Below, piece by piece: positions 4,411 to 11,975 of a stretch of 64,000 nt of DNA. Under the pieces are notes generated by a model. The model was not told the DNA's origin, did no database searches, and was given only the letters and a program-made list of their open reading frames with translations. Made by a program: the position numbers and the translations under genes. The stretch is from Candidatus Megamonas gallistercoris (GTDB taxonomy: Bacteria; Bacillota; Negativicutes; Selenomonadales; Selenomonadaceae), in NCBI GenBank assembly GCA_019114805.1, contig DXER01000081.1:12976-76975 (forward strand). The letters run 5' to 3'. How positions within the stretch are numbered: the first letter of the stretch is position 1; each line of letters begins with the position of its first letter.

Positions 4411-4437
4411 ATTAACCAATCCTTTCAGATATATTTA

Positions 4438-4966
4438 TTTCATTTTTCTTTGAAGCTCAAAGAAAATAAATAAAAAGAAAGTGCCTATTCGGCACAATAT
4501 AATGTAAAGAGAGTTATTTCCTAATTTATTCTTATATTGCGCCGGGCAATTTTTCTTTGAGATACAAAGAAAAGTTGCCGAAAAAGAAATACATGATTTA
4601 GAAACCGCATAGAAATTTTCCTTTAGAGATAAGATATTTTTATCTATAACGTCCAAAAACTCGCTAATGCTCAAACAGTTTGGACTAAAACCATAGCTAA
4701 AAATATCTTATCTCCAATAGCCTGACGGCTATCGGAAAATTATCTAAATGCGCAATAGAATTTTGAGATAAATTGCAATTTGCAGTGTCCACATCATTTT
4801 TAAGTTTCTATTTGAAAGCACGAGCTAAATTCCAAATGTTTCGAGCCGTTGTTTCGACTGTATTCATATAAGCACCTCGAAGGCTTGCCCAGTGCAGCGT
4901 AAGCGAAACGTTAAAAAAGGTTTTCTTTTTGGTTCGTTTTTCTTTGAGCTTCAAATAAAAATGAAC
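4438..4966. repeat. Structured non-coding palindromic element with ~45-bp imperfect terminal inverted repeats (MITE/REPIN-like)
   Basis: Left end TTCATTTTTCTTTGAAGCTCAAAGAAAA...AAAAAGAAA matches reverse complement of right end; nested internal hairpins; homologs at 38386-38470 and 62850-63116. Confidence 0.8.
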
Positions 4967-5053
4967 TAAAAAAAATAGGTGTCATCTTCTAACACCTATT
5001 TTAGTTTAAATATTTTATTATATCTAATACTTATATTCTATTTCCAAAAATGC

Positions 5054-5991: not shown

Positions 5992-6207
5992 TTATTTTAC
6001 AACTGTTACATTTACAGCACGCATTTTGCTTGCATCGCGGCTGTCTGCTTCTGTATCGAAAGTTACTTTCTGGCCTTCTTCCAAAGTTTTAAAGCCTTCG
6101 GAATTGATAGCGGAAAAATGAACGAATAAATCGCCGGAACCGTCATCATTTGTAATAAAACCATATCCTTTACCAGAATTAAACCATTTAACTGTACCTG
6201 TTCCCAT
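5992..6207 (-). CDS. csp: Cold-shock protein
   Basis: GTVKWFN, KGYGFI (RNP1), LFVHFSAI (RNP2). Confidence 0.97.
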
Positions 6208-6348
6208 TATTGAGAAGCCTCCTTATAAAATAAAATATAAATCAGTGCGGAGAGTAAACTAAAAAACAAATAAAATCTTCCACACATTTGATATTTGAGA
6301 GGAGGACTTAAACGTTAATTTAATTGTATTCCAAAACTGAATAGCTCA

Positions 6349-6377
6349 ATCATAGCATGAGTTATATTTTTTGTCAA
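6349..6377 (-). promoter_or_regulatory. Sigma-A promoter of csp (implies ~135-nt 5' UTR)
   Basis: TTGACA-17-TATGAT with extended TG on minus strand. Confidence 0.7.
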
Positions 6378-6413
6378 TTTTGCATACAAACTTTACATAT
6401 TTACATATTTTAA

Positions 6414-6442
6414 TTGACGCTTATTTATGATAATGCTATACT
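6414..6442 (+). promoter_or_regulatory. Sigma-A promoter of cstA
   Basis: TTGACG-17-TATACT with extended TG. Confidence 0.7.
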
Positions 6443-6543
6443 ATGTATTCGACGACTGCTGTATATTTCTTATATCTTATCCATATGGACAAATATATCT
6501 AATATTTTAGCGGAAACAACAAATTTTGAAAGGAAGATTTTTT

Positions 6544-8226
6544 ATGAACGGTATAATGCTCGTCGGCTCTGCTATTATAATTTTTTTCTTGGCTTACCGT
6601 CTTTACGGCCGCTGGCTGCTCAGAACATGGGGCTTCGACCCGAGCGCAAAAACACCTGCCTACAAATATGAAGACGGACAGGATTTCACGCCAGCTTCCA
6701 AATTCACCGTATTTTCTCATCAATTTACATCAATCACAGGAGCAGGACCTGTAACAGGCCCAATAATTGCCGCCATGTACGGCTGGCTGCCGGCTTTTTT
6801 ATGGATTATCTTCGGCGGAATTTTCTTCGGTGCTGTGCAGGATTTTACGGCATTATATGCTTCTGTAAAAAATCAAGGAAAATCCATGGGTATGCTTATT
6901 GAACAATACATAGGCAAAACAGGCCGCCGTCTGTTTTTATTATTCTGCTGGCTATTCAGCCTGCTCGTTATTGCCGCTTTCGGTGATATTGTTGCCAATA
7001 CCTTCAACGGATTTACCAGCGACGGAAGTCCTATTACTCCGAATGCTGCCGCTGCCTCTATTTCCATGCTGTTCATTTTCGCAGCCATAGCTTTCGGTTT
7101 ATTCACCCAAAAAATTCATCCAAGTGAAAAAACACGTTTCGTTATCGGTATTATTCTTTTACTTATCATGCTTGCCGCCGGTATCGCCTTTCCGATTTAC
7201 CTCGACCGCATGAGCTGGCTCTACATTGTATTTTTCTATATTTTCATAGCTGCCGTAATGCCAATGTGGATTTTAAAACAACCACGCGATTATTTAAGCG
7301 CGTTTTTACTTCTCGCGATGATTTTGGGCGGTGTTGTCGGCGTTTTTGTTGCAAATCCCACCATCAATATGCCTGCGTTTGTCGGTTTTACCGTAAACGG
7401 CAAGGATTTATTTCCAATTTTGTTTATCACCATTGCCTGCGGTGCCGTTTCCGGCTTCCACAGCCTCGTCTCCTCCGGTACATCATCAAAAACACTCTCC
7501 AATGAAAAAGACACTCTATTTGTCGGCTACGGCTCCATGCTTGTAGAGTCCGTACTCGGTGTCGTTTCACTTGTAATTGTCTGTTCGGCGGCAACGGGCG
7601 GTCATCTGCCGGAAGGCACACCGTTTCAGATTTTTTCTACGGCGGTTGCCGGTTTTTTCTCCATGTTCGGCATGCCGCACGATATCGCCAACTGCATAAT
7701 GACCATGTGCGTATCGGCTCTTGCTCTCACTACGCTTGATGCTGTAGCCCGCATCGGACGCATGTCCTTTCAGGAACTTTTCACCATTGACAACGCACAG
7801 GATATGAACACTTTACAAAAAATATGTACCAATAAGTATTTCTCTACAATTATAACACTCGTATTCGGGTATTTTCTCTGTTTAGGAGGCTATATGAATA
7901 TCTGGCCGCTGTTCGGTGCCGCCAATCAGCTGCTCTCGGCACTCGTGCTAATCTCCCTTGCCGTATTTTTAAGAACTACAGGCCGTAAGGGCTTTATGCT
8001 CTACATTCCGATGATTGTAATGTTCTGCGTAACGCTCACGGCACTTATCGAAGCAGTATACGGTATTTTGGTAAAACTGTCTGCCGGTCAGTTCACATTT
8101 ACCGTTGACGGACTGCAACTCATCGTAGCGATTGCCTTAATGGTACTTGCCGTTTCCGTCGCCCTGCACTGCGGCCGAGAACTCATAAATCCAAAAGAAA
8201 AAACCACCATAGAATTAAATCACTAA
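6544..8226 (+). CDS. cstA: Carbon starvation protein A family transporter
   Basis: HQFTSITGAGPVTGP, IACGAVSGFHS, IWPLFGAANQL motifs. Confidence 0.95.
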   Translation: MNGIMLVGSAIIIFFLAYRLYGRWLLRTWGFDPSAKTPAYKYEDGQDFTPASKFTVFSHQFTSITGAGPVTGPIIAAMYGWLPAFLWIIFGGIFFGAVQDFTALYASVKNQGKSMGMLIEQYIGKTGRRLFLLFCWLFSLLVIAAFGDIVANTFNGFTSDGSPITPNAAAASISMLFIFAAIAFGLFTQKIHPSEKTRFVIGIILLLIMLAAGIAFPIYLDRMSWLYIVFFYIFIAAVMPMWILKQPRDYLSAFLLLAMILGGVVGVFVANPTINMPAFVGFTVNGKDLFPILFITIACGAVSGFHSLVSSGTSSKTLSNEKDTLFVGYGSMLVESVLGVVSLVIVCSAATGGHLPEGTPFQIFSTAVAGFFSMFGMPHDIANCIMTMCVSALALTTLDAVARIGRMSFQELFTIDNAQDMNTLQKICTNKYFSTIITLVFGYFLCLGGYMNIWPLFGAANQLLSALVLISLAVFLRTTGRKGFMLYIPMIVMFCVTLTALIEAVYGILVKLSAGQFTFTVDGLQLIVAIALMVLAVSVALHCGRELINPKEKTTIELNH

Positions 8227-8227
8227 T

Positions 8228-8268
8228 AAAAAAAGCACTTTAGAGCTAATCTCCAAAGTGCTTTTTTT
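8228..8268. terminator. Bidirectional intrinsic terminator
   Basis: AAAAAAAGCACTTT...AAAGTGCTTTTTTT between convergent genes. Confidence 0.8.
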
Positions 8269-8768
8269 TAGAACTCCTTGCCAATATTTTCCACTGTATC
8301 CAATACCTTATATTTCTTTACATCACCTTTTTTCCAAACATTCGGCACAACAAAACAGCCTTTATTTTTCCAATTTTGATATCTCGCGATATTTTCATAC
8401 GTTTCAATAAGACCGTTGAACGCTTCCTGATATTTCGTATCGCCGTAGCCGATTAGAAAAACCTCCCTAATATTAGACAGACTATTTTCCTTCACCAATG
8501 TACAGATTTTATCCAGAAGCATTTTTATCTGCGGTGAAAAACTGAACCAATGAAGAGGTGTTATGATTACAAGTGTATCTGCCCATTTTATGAGCGAAGA
8601 AAAATCCTTATCTTCTTCATTTTCATTCTGCATTTTGCGCCATAATGTATTATAAATCTTCACATCATGTACATTAGCTCTGTGCACGCCCTTAATAAAT
8701 GCTTCCGCTAACATATAGCTGTTTCCATATAAATGCGAACTGCCCGTTATCACTAAAATCTTAGCCAT
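8268..8768 (-). CDS. Flavodoxin / NADPH-dependent FMN reductase family protein
   Basis: KILVITGS...GNS, ADTLVIITPLHW..SPQIKMLLDK; true start ATG 8768 (MAKIL). Confidence 0.8.
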   Translation of the reverse strand: MAKILVITGSSHLYGNSYMLAEAFIKGVHRANVHDVKIYNTLWRKMQNENEEDKDFSSLIKWADTLVIITPLHWFSFSPQIKMLLDKICTLVKENSLSNIREVFLIGYGDTKYQEAFNGLIETYENIARYQNWKNKGCFVVPNVWKKGDVKKYKVLDTVENIGKEF

Positions 8769-8776
8769 AAAAATTC

Positions 8777-8925
8777 CTGCTACTAAAAACATAGACAAAA
8801 GTGTTTATGTCTTAGAAAATTCCTTATTCATTGTGCTCGCTCTCGCCGTCCTGAAGGGCAAGCTACTAGCGTTTATATAGCACTCCAAAGGCGTAAATTC
8901 CCGACTAGCCATCGGTACATATATC
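8777..8925 (-). ncRNA. TnpB omega-RNA (reRNA) scaffold
   Basis: Downstream of tnpB: GTACCGATGGCTAGTCGGGAATTTACGCCTTTGGAG..., terminal hairpin, ends ...TTTAGTAGCAG at right end; 5' limit uncertain. Confidence 0.7.
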
Positions 8926-8938
8926 GAAACTTTTGTTA

Positions 8939-10138
8939 TTAAGCTATCCGATATTCTTTAGCATCCCGCAAATTAAGCGAAGCGTTGTAATCCCTATCCT
9001 CGGTATAGCCGCATTTAGGGCAGACATACACACGGTCTTTGAGTTTTAGACCCTTATGAATATGCCCGCAACAATGGCACATTTTAGAACTTGGATAGAA
9101 TCTATCAACCATACGTAATTCAATACCGATTATGTCTGCTTTGCGTTTCAGTTTAGTCAATAATCGGTTAAACCGTTGCGCCGCCACGGCTTTTGCCAGA
9201 TGCCTGTTCTTCATCATACCTTTGACGTTCAAATCTTCCACAGTAATAAAGCGTGGTTTTTGCTTCACTATTTCGTGGACAGTTTTGTTTTCGTAATCCT
9301 TACGGATATTGTTAATACATTGATGAAGTTTCTGTACCTTTAACTTTTGCTTTTCTATGTTTGCAGAGGCCGTAGCAGTTTTACCACCTTTCTTTTTTCT
9401 AAACTCATATTTACGGCTAAGACGCCTCTGCTCTTTTCGAAGCCGTTTCTCCAGTCGTCTGACCTTTGAACTTTTATTAACATTTTTGAATGTCTTACCA
9501 TTGCTTACAATCGCTAAATCTTTGATGCCCAAATCTATGCCGATACCATCTGTTGTATTATGGTATATTGCTTCTAAATCCTTGTTATATCCGGATTTTT
9601 CGTCTATCTGAGCTACCACAGACACATAGAATTTGCCAGCCGCATAGGACACCGTACCATTAATAACAGTAGCGTCCACAGGCAAATAACCAAACTCTTT
9701 AAGCCTAACCTGTTTTAGCGTAGGTATCATCAGCTTGTGTCGCCATATTACCCAGTCACTTTTATTGTTCTTCGGAAAATACAACTTTACGTCTTGATTT
9801 GATTTTTTCTTGAATCTCGGAAAATCAGCCAAACCATGCCAAAATTTTTTAAAGGCAGTTTCGGCATTTACCAATGCTTTTTTTCGAGCCTTAGAGCCGC
9901 ACTCGTTAATCCAGGGCAATTCTATTTTTAGTTTGTGATTTACATACTTATCAAAATCATTAGCGGATACAAAATGCTTTTGCTGACAGTCCAACAAACC
10001 GCGTTGATACATCTTGTATAGTTTTTTATTGTAAGCAATATACTGATTATATAAAAATCTGGCTATGCCTATCGAGCGAACAATCTTTTCTTTCTGCTCT
10101 TTAGTCGGTGCTATTTCCGTCTTGAACGCCTTTAGCAA
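8939..10138 (-). CDS. tnpB: RNA-guided endonuclease TnpB (IS607 family)
   Basis: KAFKTEI N-terminus; RuvC D (GIDLG), E (ITVEDL), D (DRDYNAS); Zn finger CHCCG...CPKCG; likely start TTG 10138 or ATG 10147. Confidence 0.95.
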   Translation of the reverse strand: MLKAFKTEIAPTKEQKEKIVRSIGIARFLYNQYIAYNKKLYKMYQRGLLDCQQKHFVSANDFDKYVNHKLKIELPWINECGSKARKKALVNAETAFKKFWHGLADFPRFKKKSNQDVKLYFPKNNKSDWVIWRHKLMIPTLKQVRLKEFGYLPVDATVINGTVSYAAGKFYVSVVAQIDEKSGYNKDLEAIYHNTTDGIGIDLGIKDLAIVSNGKTFKNVNKSSKVRRLEKRLRKEQRRLSRKYEFRKKKGGKTATASANIEKQKLKVQKLHQCINNIRKDYENKTVHEIVKQKPRFITVEDLNVKGMMKNRHLAKAVAAQRFNRLLTKLKRKADIIGIELRMVDRFYPSSKMCHCCGHIHKGLKLKDRVYVCPKCGYTEDRDYNASLNLRDAKEYRIA

Positions 10139-10157
10139 TGTTCTCATCCCCTTGTAT

Positions 10158-10325
10158 TTACGTAACCCGTACTGTATGGTCATAAGTATAATACCTTCGA
10201 TTAGTAGGAGTTCTGTTTGCTACAAGAATTTTTTCCCTGTCCCAGCGTTGCAATGTCTTAACCGACACATTAAGCAGTTCAGCGAACTCTTTAGGTTTAT
10301 AATTAGTGATGTTTAATATGTTCAT
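10158..10325 (-). pseudogene. tnpA: IS607 serine recombinase TnpA, catalytic domain deleted
   Basis: N-terminal HTH YKPKEFAELLNVSVKTLQRWD...RRYYTYD joined out of frame to the C-terminal YGLRKYK; no YARVS motif. Confidence 0.85.
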
Positions 10326-10500
10326 GGCTTTTATCCTCCTAATCATGTTATATCACTAATACACACTTTTATCTACATAATTAGTTACTTAGAATGTCTC
10401 CTTAAATAATTAATATATTAGATATTATAAAGTATGGATAGAGACTATAGTCAATAAAATTTTGTAGTTTTGTTATGATGTCAGATACAGCCGGACAAAT

Positions 10501-10526
10501 AAAAAAGCCTGTCGGCTGACAGGCTG
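10501..10526 (-). terminator. Intrinsic terminator after tRNA-Ser
   Basis: AGCCTGTC-GGCT-GACAGGCT hairpin with T-tract on minus strand. Confidence 0.75.
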
Positions 10527-10543
10527 TAAATACTTATGATATA

Positions 10544-10632
10544 TGGCGGAAAGGGTGGGATTCGAACCCACGGTACGTTGCCGTATCACCGGTTTTCAAG
10601 ACCGGCTCCTTAAACCACTCGGACACCTTTCC
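10544..10632 (-). tRNA. tRNA-Ser(TGA)
   Basis: GGAAAGGTGTCCGAGTGG...CCGGTCT-TGA-AAACCGG, long variable arm, GGTTCGAATCC, encoded CCA. Confidence 0.97.
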
Positions 10633-10846
10633 ATAAGATACTATATTAGTATAGCAAGTTTATTTGCAAAATGTCAACTGAAAATTGTCTGTAATTAATT
10701 AAAATGTTGGCAGATAGAAAATTTTGTTCATTGGGTTCATAAAATGTAGAGTTTTCTGATAGAGTAAGATTTTAAGTTTGGTAATTATTAGACTTGTAAA
10801 GTTAAAATAGATGAATTATACTTAATATGCAATATTTACATATGAG

Positions 10847-11010
10847 GACGGTGAATAATAATGGACGATTATCCGGAGAGTAACAGGTTAAATAAAAGAA
10901 AAAGACAATTTAAAATCAAAACGGAAGAACAATCTGCCATTATTCACACTGTCTATAGAAATAACAGCAGGCGGTAGATTTTCTTTCGGCTTCTTGAAAG
11001 GAGAAATCTA
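10847..11010 (+). promoter_or_regulatory. Putative corA leader attenuator with 38-aa uORF (10861-10977)
   Basis: Overlapping alternative stems, one covering the corA SD; uORF MDDYPESNRLNKRKRQFKIKTEEQSAIIHTVYRNNSRR. Confidence 0.5.
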
Positions 11011-11015
11011 TCGCA

Positions 11016-11975
11016 ATGTTGAAAATTTATAAATCCATGGAAAGCGGACCGCTGGAAGAATTAAATCTGAAAACTTTGGAAAAAGGAGCATGGATAAATA
11101 TTGTGGCGCCTACACCGTACGAGTTGAAAGTTGTAGGTAATCTCACGGAAGTTGAACCGGATTTTCTGCGTTCCGCACTGGATAATGAAGAACGTTCCCA
11201 TACGGATATTGAAGATAATTCTATCATGGTCTTAACGAATGTTCCGGTTATGCGTACTTTTGAATCATACGATACATTGCCGTTGGCGATTATTTTGACA
11301 CCGGATTATATAATTACTGTATGTCTTGAAGATACGCCCGTAATATCCGATTTTAACGAAAGGACGTACCGTTCATTTCGTACATTTAAGAAAACTCGTT
11401 TTCTGTTTCAGATACTGTATAAATCCGTAACATATTATTTGAAATATCTGCGGCAGATTGACAAGCTGTCTGATGAAATAGAATCCCGTCTGCGTGAATC
11501 TACTCAGAACAAAGAAATTCTGCGTCTTTTGGAATTACAGAAAGCCCTTACATATTTTAATGCTTCCCTGCGTTCCAATGGTGCAGTGCTGGATAAATTA
11601 ATGCGGCTCCGTTCCAATCATAATCTGCAAAATATTATAAAGCTGTATGAAGAAGATGAGGATTTATTGGAAGATGTCATCATAGAAAATAAGCAGGCAC
11701 GTGAAATGGTTGAAATGTACAGTACAATTTTAGCAAGACTTGCTGATACGTTTTCATCCATAATGTCGAATAATCTTAACTTAGTAATGCGATTTTTAAC
11801 GGCGATAACGATACTTTTAGCCATACCGACGGTAATATCCAGTTTTTTCGGGATGAATGTGGAAGGATTTCCTTCGTTTTCACAGGGAATGTTTGCATTT
11901 GTAGACATATGCGTGATATCCGTAGCATTATCTGTCATATGTGCAACAGTTTTATGGCGAAAAAATATGTTTTGA
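11016..11975 (+). CDS. corA: CorA family Mg2+/Co2+ transporter
   Basis: FFGMNV signature after TM1, two C-terminal TM helices. Confidence 0.95.
   Translation: MLKIYKSMESGPLEELNLKTLEKGAWINIVAPTPYELKVVGNLTEVEPDFLRSALDNEERSHTDIEDNSIMVLTNVPVMRTFESYDTLPLAIILTPDYIITVCLEDTPVISDFNERTYRSFRTFKKTRFLFQILYKSVTYYLKYLRQIDKLSDEIESRLRESTQNKEILRLLELQKALTYFNASLRSNGAVLDKLMRLRSNHNLQNIIKLYEEDEDLLEDVIIENKQAREMVEMYSTILARLADTFSSIMSNNLNLVMRFLTAITILLAIPTVISSFFGMNVEGFPSFSQGMFAFVDICVISVALSVICATVLWRKNMF

Follow-up and report, generated by a model that had tools for sequence, protein, structure and literature searches.

A transposase-less IS607/TnpB element of Candidatus Megamonas gallistercoris with a spare Shine-Dalgarno and a complement of its own right end

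The closest described relatives of the element considered here are the ISFba1-type systems (Ren et al., 2024; PMC11061315). For these the available text reports a target-adjacent motif (TAM) measured as 5'-AGGAG in 18 of 22 strains, scaffolds ending in GCAG (its Table S2), and a pseudoknot, PK2, that uses the terminus of the right end (RE), a mutation of the PK2 loop having impaired formation of the ribonucleoprotein in ISFba1. RAGATH-18 RNAs were counted there beside IS607 TnpBs 10,258 times in 9,172 strains, mostly gut Firmicutes. We have analysed a 64,000-nt stretch (the window) of contig DXER01000081.1 of Candidatus Megamonas gallistercoris (assembly 87% complete), which carries on its minus strand a transposase-less ISFba1-type IS607/TnpB copy, with a RAGATH-18 RNA and an AG core, at an AGGAG Shine-Dalgarno (SD) site upstream of a flavodoxin-like gene. 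Within its tnpB there is a strong spare SD followed by a complement of the element's own RE. We propose, from comparison of sequences across the family, that the two pair on a read-through transcript and likely provide a replacement ribosome-binding site (RBS) for the interrupted gene, a reading to which we would give a probability of roughly 0.6.

Insertion at Shine-Dalgarno sites

The identification as an IS607-TnpB element, made in an original prediction from the DNA alone, is confirmed by the best solved relative of the TnpB (ISFba1, PDB 8iaz, E 8e-118) and by the RAGATH-18 RNA; of tnpA there is a MerR-type remnant, and the NCBIfam IS607_TnpB model gives a score of 158, under its cut-off of 350. 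Both predicted junction strings occur on the minus strand, with AGGAG at 10402-10398, the RE closing AGTAGCAG at 8777 and the host ATG at 8768. Two cores, AG and GG, had been thought possible. AG is shared by both ends, and among the matches listed the base after the RE varies over 134 distinct sites (50 G, 49 A, 27 T and 8 C); because of this variation we take the core to be AG, and the GG reading is ruled out. The proposed TAM of about AGGAG agrees with the published one (PMC11061315), and the residues that read the TAM bases (K80, K83, N121 and N122 in ISFba1 numbering) are conserved, as are Y117 and N61; ISFba1 N62 is here H, and S160 is N. The predicted guide does cover the host start codon, its scaffold end being placed by analogy. 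Of 135 REs, 134 have C at base -3 and none has G there, and therefore no TAM is rebuilt ahead of the guide match.

Other copies agree with this target. When the left ends of relatives were located by their inner motif, AGGAG stood 7-8 nt upstream of it in 24 of 28; the first 7-8 bases inside the left end differ even among close copies, and the motif behind them is fixed. In empty alleles of congeners AGGAG immediately precedes the spacer and start of fprA (5 of 5 genomes); for a MATE gene three of five have AGGAG at this place and the other two GAGGT, and for a site on contig C65 it is AGGAG in both near-identical flanks (among 5 matches). With AG at both element ends, these empty alleles show no target-site duplication. 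The proposed check in relatives thus bore out the junctions at these three sites, and did not confirm the reconstructed empty site of the flavodoxin gene (see below); this gene was not found in six congeners or in 200 sampled genomes of the order, and the sole metagenome match for the site (L171) is occupied.

To survey the family, copies were gathered by a motif inside the guide RNA, a search blind to the flank, together with those of the source genome. At least 134 distinct sites were retained after leaving out eight loci without a usable RE, eight duplicates and L013. A landing was counted when a start codon opening at least 50 codons stood 4-12 nt downstream of the RE. Among the matches listed, this was so for 105 of the 134 distinct REs, with a peak at 7-10 nt, as against 681 of 1966 AGGAG in the source genome and 78 of 376 in host flanks by the same criterion (21-35%; Fisher p 2e-32, a value overstated by the kinship of the elements). 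A second set, found by protein, has a start at this distance in 27 of 38 AG-type and 10 of 14 GG-type elements. The suspected bias towards RBSs is therefore seen across the family. It probably comes from the AGGAG motif together with the loss of insertions in coding sequence. A simple gene model assigns 26% of the AGGAG occurrences in the source genome to SDs, 13% to other intergenic positions and 61% to coding sequence; about 9 of the 134 insertions, among the matches listed, look coding. Motif and loss of coding insertions together predict 67-77% SD sites in the own genome, so that any true targeting beyond the motif is hypothetical. An in-frame ATG inside the RE was considered as a new start; it is in frame here, yet there is no enrichment for spacers of 5, 8 and 11 nt. 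In the literature within reach (most subscription journals, and figures, lay outside it) we found no account of SD landing or of the internal motif described below.

Insertion costs the host gene most of its SD. Computed with the genome's own 16S end, anti-SD pairing is -10.0 kcal/mol in empty and -2.9 kcal/mol in inserted alleles (n=20 complete elements). Over 105 inserted alleles it is -3.2 kcal/mol and in shuffled sequences -3.4 kcal/mol, so that the RE itself is ruled out as a substitute SD. For the true pairs of our locus (see below) the change is from -10.2 to -4.3 kcal/mol at the flavodoxin gene and from -8.2 to -0.4 or -2.8 kcal/mol at the MATE gene. Start regions are no more accessible after insertion (0.51 vs 0.49 unpaired, n=20). 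The downstream proteins, scanned for 90 of the 105 landings (14 viral ones and the flavodoxin were left out), include LysS, CysS, PlsX, PcrA, AcpS, MurB, YqeH, YidC and SufU, and match their models from the N-terminus; for cysS, lysS and plsX the genome in question has no copy over the cut-off other than the one behind an RE. Because relatives sit before the only copies of these three genes, insertion is unlikely to mean OFF.

The spare Shine-Dalgarno and its possible roles

In the window, AGAAAGGTGGT is followed by four A and by CTGCTAC, which is exactly complementary to the seven bases that end the RE (Table 1). This internal SD, at -12.5 kcal/mol, is stronger than native ones (-8 to -10 kcal/mol), and a change at 9371, present in 8 of 8 public runs, adds an eighth pair to the anti-RE helix. 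The codons involved encode a length-variable, K/E-rich loop of the protein (K-K-G-E-A-T). The motif was found, within one interval of 66 nt, in 83 of 102 tnpB elements, 17 loci without a strict RE and six repeats or degenerate copies having been left out.

The helix covaries with the RE. Its pair columns contain 67 UA, 2 GC, 2 CG and 1 AU at -8; 72 AU, 9 GU and 2 GC at -6; 71 UA, 9 CG and 2 UG at -5; and 68 CG, 11 UA and 2 UG at -4. The RE types AGTGGCAG, AGTGACAG, (A/C/T)GTAACGG and GGCAACGG each have a matching loop, and the cognate RE is the best partner in 8 of 9 types (one a tie), the changes being compensatory or G-U preserving. On a tree from a quick search, U-A has become C-G in two separated groups, and C-G has become U-A in L190 and in a clade with GG-ending REs, inside which there are further double changes. 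This sister clade (L231-L283; RE ends GTAACGG or GGCAACGG) stands before starts in 10 of 14 cases, has its own covarying SD and anti-RE motif, and is possibly the GAGGG-TAM group of PMC11061315. The predicted PK2 loop also covaries with the RE. An AGTAGC within RAGATH-18 was discarded as the partner of the motif, since in L014 the motif changed with the RE and the RAGATH copy did not.

Nor does the motif follow the protein alone. Against synonymous recodings of 83 distinct, unselected loops, the helix is at -8.2 vs -4.1 kcal/mol (better in 75) and the SD at -12.2 vs -9.7 kcal/mol (better in 69), and 189 control windows showed no pairing excess over their recodings. The Ala codon of the motif is GCT in 32 of 33 cases (background 33%), the lone GCC being compensated by G at the RE partner position. 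L075 keeps the motif in a different reading frame. In one clade lacking it in tnpB, the motif lies behind the tnpB stop, 167-174 nt before the RE, in 9 of 11 elements (false positives in host flanks, 23 of 303), and the two elements without it are not at start codons. It is also kept in 22 of 26 tnpB-less mini-elements, which retain a 20-nt piece consisting of the SD and then GCTAC(T).

We propose the following scheme. The element enters at AGGAG with its AG core, mostly 4-12 nt before a start as counted above, and the RE alone, by computation, leaves no SD. What replaces it would be the SD and anti-RE motif, for which the comparison gives conservation at the nucleotide level, covariation with the RE and three positions in different lineages. 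Transcription from the host and left-end promoters would read through the element, and the helix would loop out 140-620 nt and bring the spare SD in front of the host gene's spacer and start codon; in the commonest form, with a helix domain reaching from just after the internal AGGAG to the last RE base, the geometry of the empty site would be rebuilt. The same RE bases would form PK2 of the guide RNA, and because both structures use them, rescue and guide folding should compete, which would make TnpB binding and rescue of host translation mutually exclusive. TnpBs of this family are established to cut empty AGGAG-plus-guide alleles, by which the element would be retained, judging from work on IS605 and IStrons. 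The motif likely explains why insertion is tolerated, so that any switch would act at the RNA level. A wider version, in which a widespread lineage specialises on RBSs and mends them in the RNA with no splicing, a portable SD within or behind tnpB being delivered to any host start by long-range RE pairing and toggled by TnpB via the guide pseudoknot, could in our judgement equally well hold or fail.

Several points weigh against the replacement RBS. The rebuilt distance from SD to start would be about 4-6 nt beyond the native one unless terminal mismatches stack, and in the window it is 14 nt (6+8, counted from the AGGUG end), as compared with 11 nt for T4 gene 25; longer linkers are not matched by shorter spacers at the occupied sites (rho 0.12, p 0.34). 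Plain folding, without pseudoknots or proteins, gives the helix a probability of 0.01 in the window element, where the span is 617 nt, and of 14 elements with a short span only 6 exceed 0.5. Folding of the RE region alone was uninformative (z -0.29). The association of the motif with SD landing is 64 of 83 vs 12 of 19 (p 0.25), and becomes 73 of 93 vs 3 of 9 (p 0.008) only post hoc, with relocated motifs included; the kinship of the elements overstates these p-values. A loose scan of whole coding sequences (five mis-picked or degenerate open reading frames, ORFs, left out) finds the motif in 38 of 50 vs 19-28 in synonymous shuffles, a weak excess. Finally, most hosts with the element before such downstream genes are metagenome assemblies, and the essentiality of these genes is what we take to be known from Bacillus subtilis.

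The long, uncompensated spacing would also suit a different role, which we regard as rather unlikely: pairing of motif and RE would control guide-RNA biogenesis, PK2 being blocked until TnpB processes the mRNA, or translation of tnpB, and the host gene would live on weak SD-independent initiation fed by strong read-through transcription. The anti-RE segment and the PK2 loop do share their target bases, the anti-RE helix being the stronger (-9.3 vs -3.8 kcal/mol), and in IStrons RNA structure alone is described, in the accessible parts of PMC13521648 and bioRxiv 10.1101/2023.11.20.567912, as tuning omega-RNA maturation. However, this leaves unexplained the strong SD just 5' of the helix, which exceeds its recoded controls in 69 of 83 loops, moves with the helix behind the stop codon, and persists in 22 of 26 elements without tnpB.

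Very improbable is that the motif arises from the protein sequence of the K-K-G-E-A-T loop, or serves TnpA as a binding site in the DNA, landing being due to motif and selection with no rescue device. The 19-28 of 50 matches that amino acids alone give in the loose scan, and the 67-77% of SD sites predicted from the motif and the lost coding insertions, would fit such a view; but compensatory double changes at four positions, the G-U-preserving changes typical of RNA, the frame-shifted copy (L075) and the non-coding copies speak against it, and covariation has already largely refuted it. Least probable of all is the DNA-level translational on/off switch of the original prediction, in which insertion turns the gene off and excision by TnpA turns it on again: the loss of about 7 kcal/mol of SD pairing, the precise excision reported for IS607 (bioRxiv 10.1101/2023.11.20.567912; PMC6188088, as far as these texts go) and the seeming occupancy of both loci in some public runs and emptiness in others would suit it, but sole copies of cysS, lysS and plsX stand behind REs, full-length TnpA of relatives as query returned deleted remnants only and no intact TnpA from the 87%-complete source genome, no excision joint is listed in eight public runs (whose contigs drop rare forms), and TnpB would cut the excised allele.

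The window and other copies

The features of the locus are collected in Table 1. The tnpA remnant has its serine-recombinase domain deleted, close relatives having an intact TnpA of about 215 aa, and no terminator was found within the element. A consensus promoter scan gave 9 sites vs 8.3 expected, and both proposed promoters (left-end and host) fail its rules. The host promoter-like site has dyad symmetry; its 19-nt spacer fits, we assume, a MerR-regulated efflux gene, which would suggest a MerR-family operator.

Table 1. Coordinates of the element, its predicted RNA parts and its flanks in the window
Feature	Position	Strand	Remarks
Target motif and TAM AGGAG = host SD	10398..10402	minus	by synteny SD of the MATE gene on contig C98
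Crossover core AG, left side	10399-10398	minus	
Non-autonomous IS607 element body, 1621 bp	8777..10397	minus	as assembled probably a mosaic of two copies
Inward promoter-like site, left end: TAGATA, 17 nt, TATAAC	10347..10375	minus	putative; nearer consensus in relatives
tnpA remnant, 55 aa	10158..10325	minus	MerR-type DNA-binding domain only
tnpB, ~402 aa	8939..10147	minus	RuvC D-E-D intact
Internal SD-like AGAAAGGTGGT within tnpB codons	9383..9393	minus	anti-SD duplex -12.5 kcal/mol
Anti-right-end CTGCTAC	9372..9378	minus	perfect complement of RE bases 8783-8777, -9.3 kcal/mol
Predicted omega-RNA (right-end element RNA, reRNA) scaffold	8777..8938	minus	5' end approximate
RAGATH-18 motif RF03064	8820..8891	minus	outside tnpB ORF, downstream; 68.4 bits, gathering 44.9
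Loop GGCTA of 5' hairpin	8906..8910	minus	predicted PK2 partner of RE terminus, -3.8 kcal/mol
RE terminus AGTAGCAG	8777..8784	minus	core AG at 8778-8777
Predicted 20-nt guide over spacer and start codon of flavodoxin gene	8757..8776	minus	scaffold end by analogy with published scaffolds
Flavodoxin-like / NADPH-dependent FMN reductase gene, 166 aa	8268..8768	minus	ATG at 8768
Host promoter-like site TTGACT, 19 nt, TATAAT	10424..10454	minus	similar sequence directly 5' of MATE gene in congeners
tRNA-Ser(TGA)	10547..10632	minus	synteny marker of MATE locus; terminator at 10525-10506

Excision had been expected to restore the own SD of the flavodoxin gene; here it would not, because the two flanks of the element come from different loci. 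The left flank (corA, tRNA-Ser, promoter and AGGAG) directly precedes the MATE gene in congeners: corA and tRNA-Ser adjoin it in four of them, and the promoter stretch matches directly before it in G002 and G006. In the source genome the MATE gene stands at the start of contig C98, preceded by a different RE. The flavodoxin side shows synteny with contig C84, at the end of which there is a further left end. In the complete genome G002 the cstA side of the window lies some 370 kb away from corA and adjoins contig C84, and in G003 the C84 cupin gene and the cstA terminator are immediate neighbours. The flavodoxin gene's own upstream flank would then be the end of C84, with a ROK-type regulator, its stop codon and then TAGGAG. 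Each true site, MATE and flavodoxin, is still an SD. The C63 and C84 flanks next to the element were not found in five congeners.

Public runs agree with two separate loci. In run X3 the element is at the flavodoxin gene, and a separate 27-kb contig matches only 10397-10560, with other DNA before it. Run X9 has the left end at tRNA-Ser, and the match of its flavodoxin contig ends at 8782, where the C84 flank would stop; the match in X8 (an RNA run, contigs only, without level or strand) also stops at 8782. Gene and RE are bridged by at least 31 letters in X3, X6, X11, X12 and X13, and by 26 in X16. Judging from where the contig matches end, empty alleles of both loci appear to exist in some public runs. 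The join is most likely a misassembly across the repeat, although recombination between copies may have produced it. The locus shows that empty sites rebuilt across a collapsed repeat can be false.

Among the other copies, the tnpB-less mini-elements measure about 430-480 bp. Behind their left end and ahead of the spare SD, about 420-250 nt from the RE, lies a conserved structured RNA some 170 nt long, with double changes in 22 of 32 predicted pairs. It occurs in L021, L024, L066, L069, L080, L081, L083, L085, L098, L099, L105, L117, L123, L127, L135, L154 and L164; it has no Rfam match in the loci tested, and was not found in tnpB-bearing elements or in the source genome. In L081 the mini-element stands at the start of a gene itself coding for a TnpB-family protein. 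A group I intron or IStron identity was rejected: there is no Rfam match to such an intron at 8000-11200 or in 12 relatives, the left end has only about 70 nt before tnpA, and on inspection the P3/P7 order is missing from the mini-element RNA.

Further copies lie in G000. L005 (G000:C114 ~6000-7250) is degenerate, with a TnpB that lacks the C-terminal zinc finger and the last RuvC motif, a shortened RAGATH part, intact ends, no spare-SD motif and no start at 4-12 nt, and is possibly a nuclease-dead derivative. The RE at G000:C63 1-165 reads GCAA and the left end at C120 ~790 reads AAGAAG, a change of core or TAM in each; both ends may belong to a single immobilised copy situated before an AraC-type gene. 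The left flank of the C65 copy (L006 700-1499) is 99% identical to G002 and G003, the other genes compared being at 75-89%, and probably reflects a recent horizontal transfer. Apart from the element, the window contains at 4430-4975 a repeat about 530 bp long that has inverted ends, lacks a long ORF and is similar to a miniature inverted-repeat transposable element, with 101 BLAST matches in the source genome and about 45 in G003.

Meaning and comparison with described systems

Should the wider version hold, transposons would have a new route to harmlessness, and TnpB would be a translational regulator of the gene on which it sits. If the elements with RAGATH-18 RNAs land in SDs and rebuild them by RNA folding, many gut-bacterial and phage genes, essential ones included, would be translated via a transposon-supplied, TnpB-sensitive initiation site. 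It would explain the persistence of SD insertions before essential genes, add an RNA-level strategy of host sparing beside IStron splicing, and test how large a loop a split SD can span. Being an RNA element written in the codons of a nuclease, it would be lost by codon optimisation.

With the ISFba1-type systems (Ren et al., 2024; PMC11061315; PDB 8IAZ; close relative ISMsp1, from Mitsuokella) the window element has in common, as far as the available text goes, a RAGATH-18 scaffold after tnpB, the GCAG scaffold end, AGGAG at the left flank, the RuvC and TAM-reading residues and an IS607 tnpA remnant; the window copy differs in having no working tnpA. The main text of that paper mentions AG-rich left-end TAMs and has no matches for "Shine" or "ribosome", and its sections 5, 10 and 12 contain no SD landing, essential downstream genes or internal SD and anti-RE motif. 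The AGGAG TAM is thus already published, whereas the SD and anti-RE motif is new here. Canonical IS607/IS1535 elements, in the account available in PMC6188088, share the serine recombinase, the 2-bp core and the absence of target duplication; however, their core is GG, not AG, and a (G)GG preference is all that is reported, without an SD bias.

The IS607 IStrons (CboIStron, BcISt1; bioRxiv 10.1101/2023.11.20.567912, PMC4227781, PMC13521648, in their accessible parts) are similar in another way, as their RE bases serve either the guide pseudoknot or host sparing, in competition. Here both RE pairings, anti-RE and PK2, covary with the RE, and a comparable competition is proposed from sequence. 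IStrons, with a GG core and TGGG/AGGG targets as against AG and AGGAG in the window element, spare the host by splicing, whereas the rescue proposed here would be a non-catalytic pairing that supplies an SD, and no group I intron was found. The nearest parallel to such a pairing is offered by the split RBSs of T4 genes 25 and 38 (PMC3014915, available text), in which RNA structure brings a distant SD to working distance. In our elements a covarying helix likewise lies directly 3' of a strong SD, and the effective spacing would exceed the native spacer by 0-6 nt, according to the stacking, and come to 14 nt in the window. The T4 hairpins act locally, shortening 22 or 27 nt to 5 or 11, and are specific to their genes, whereas the loop predicted here would span 140-620 nt and be mobile, serving any gene before which the element lands.

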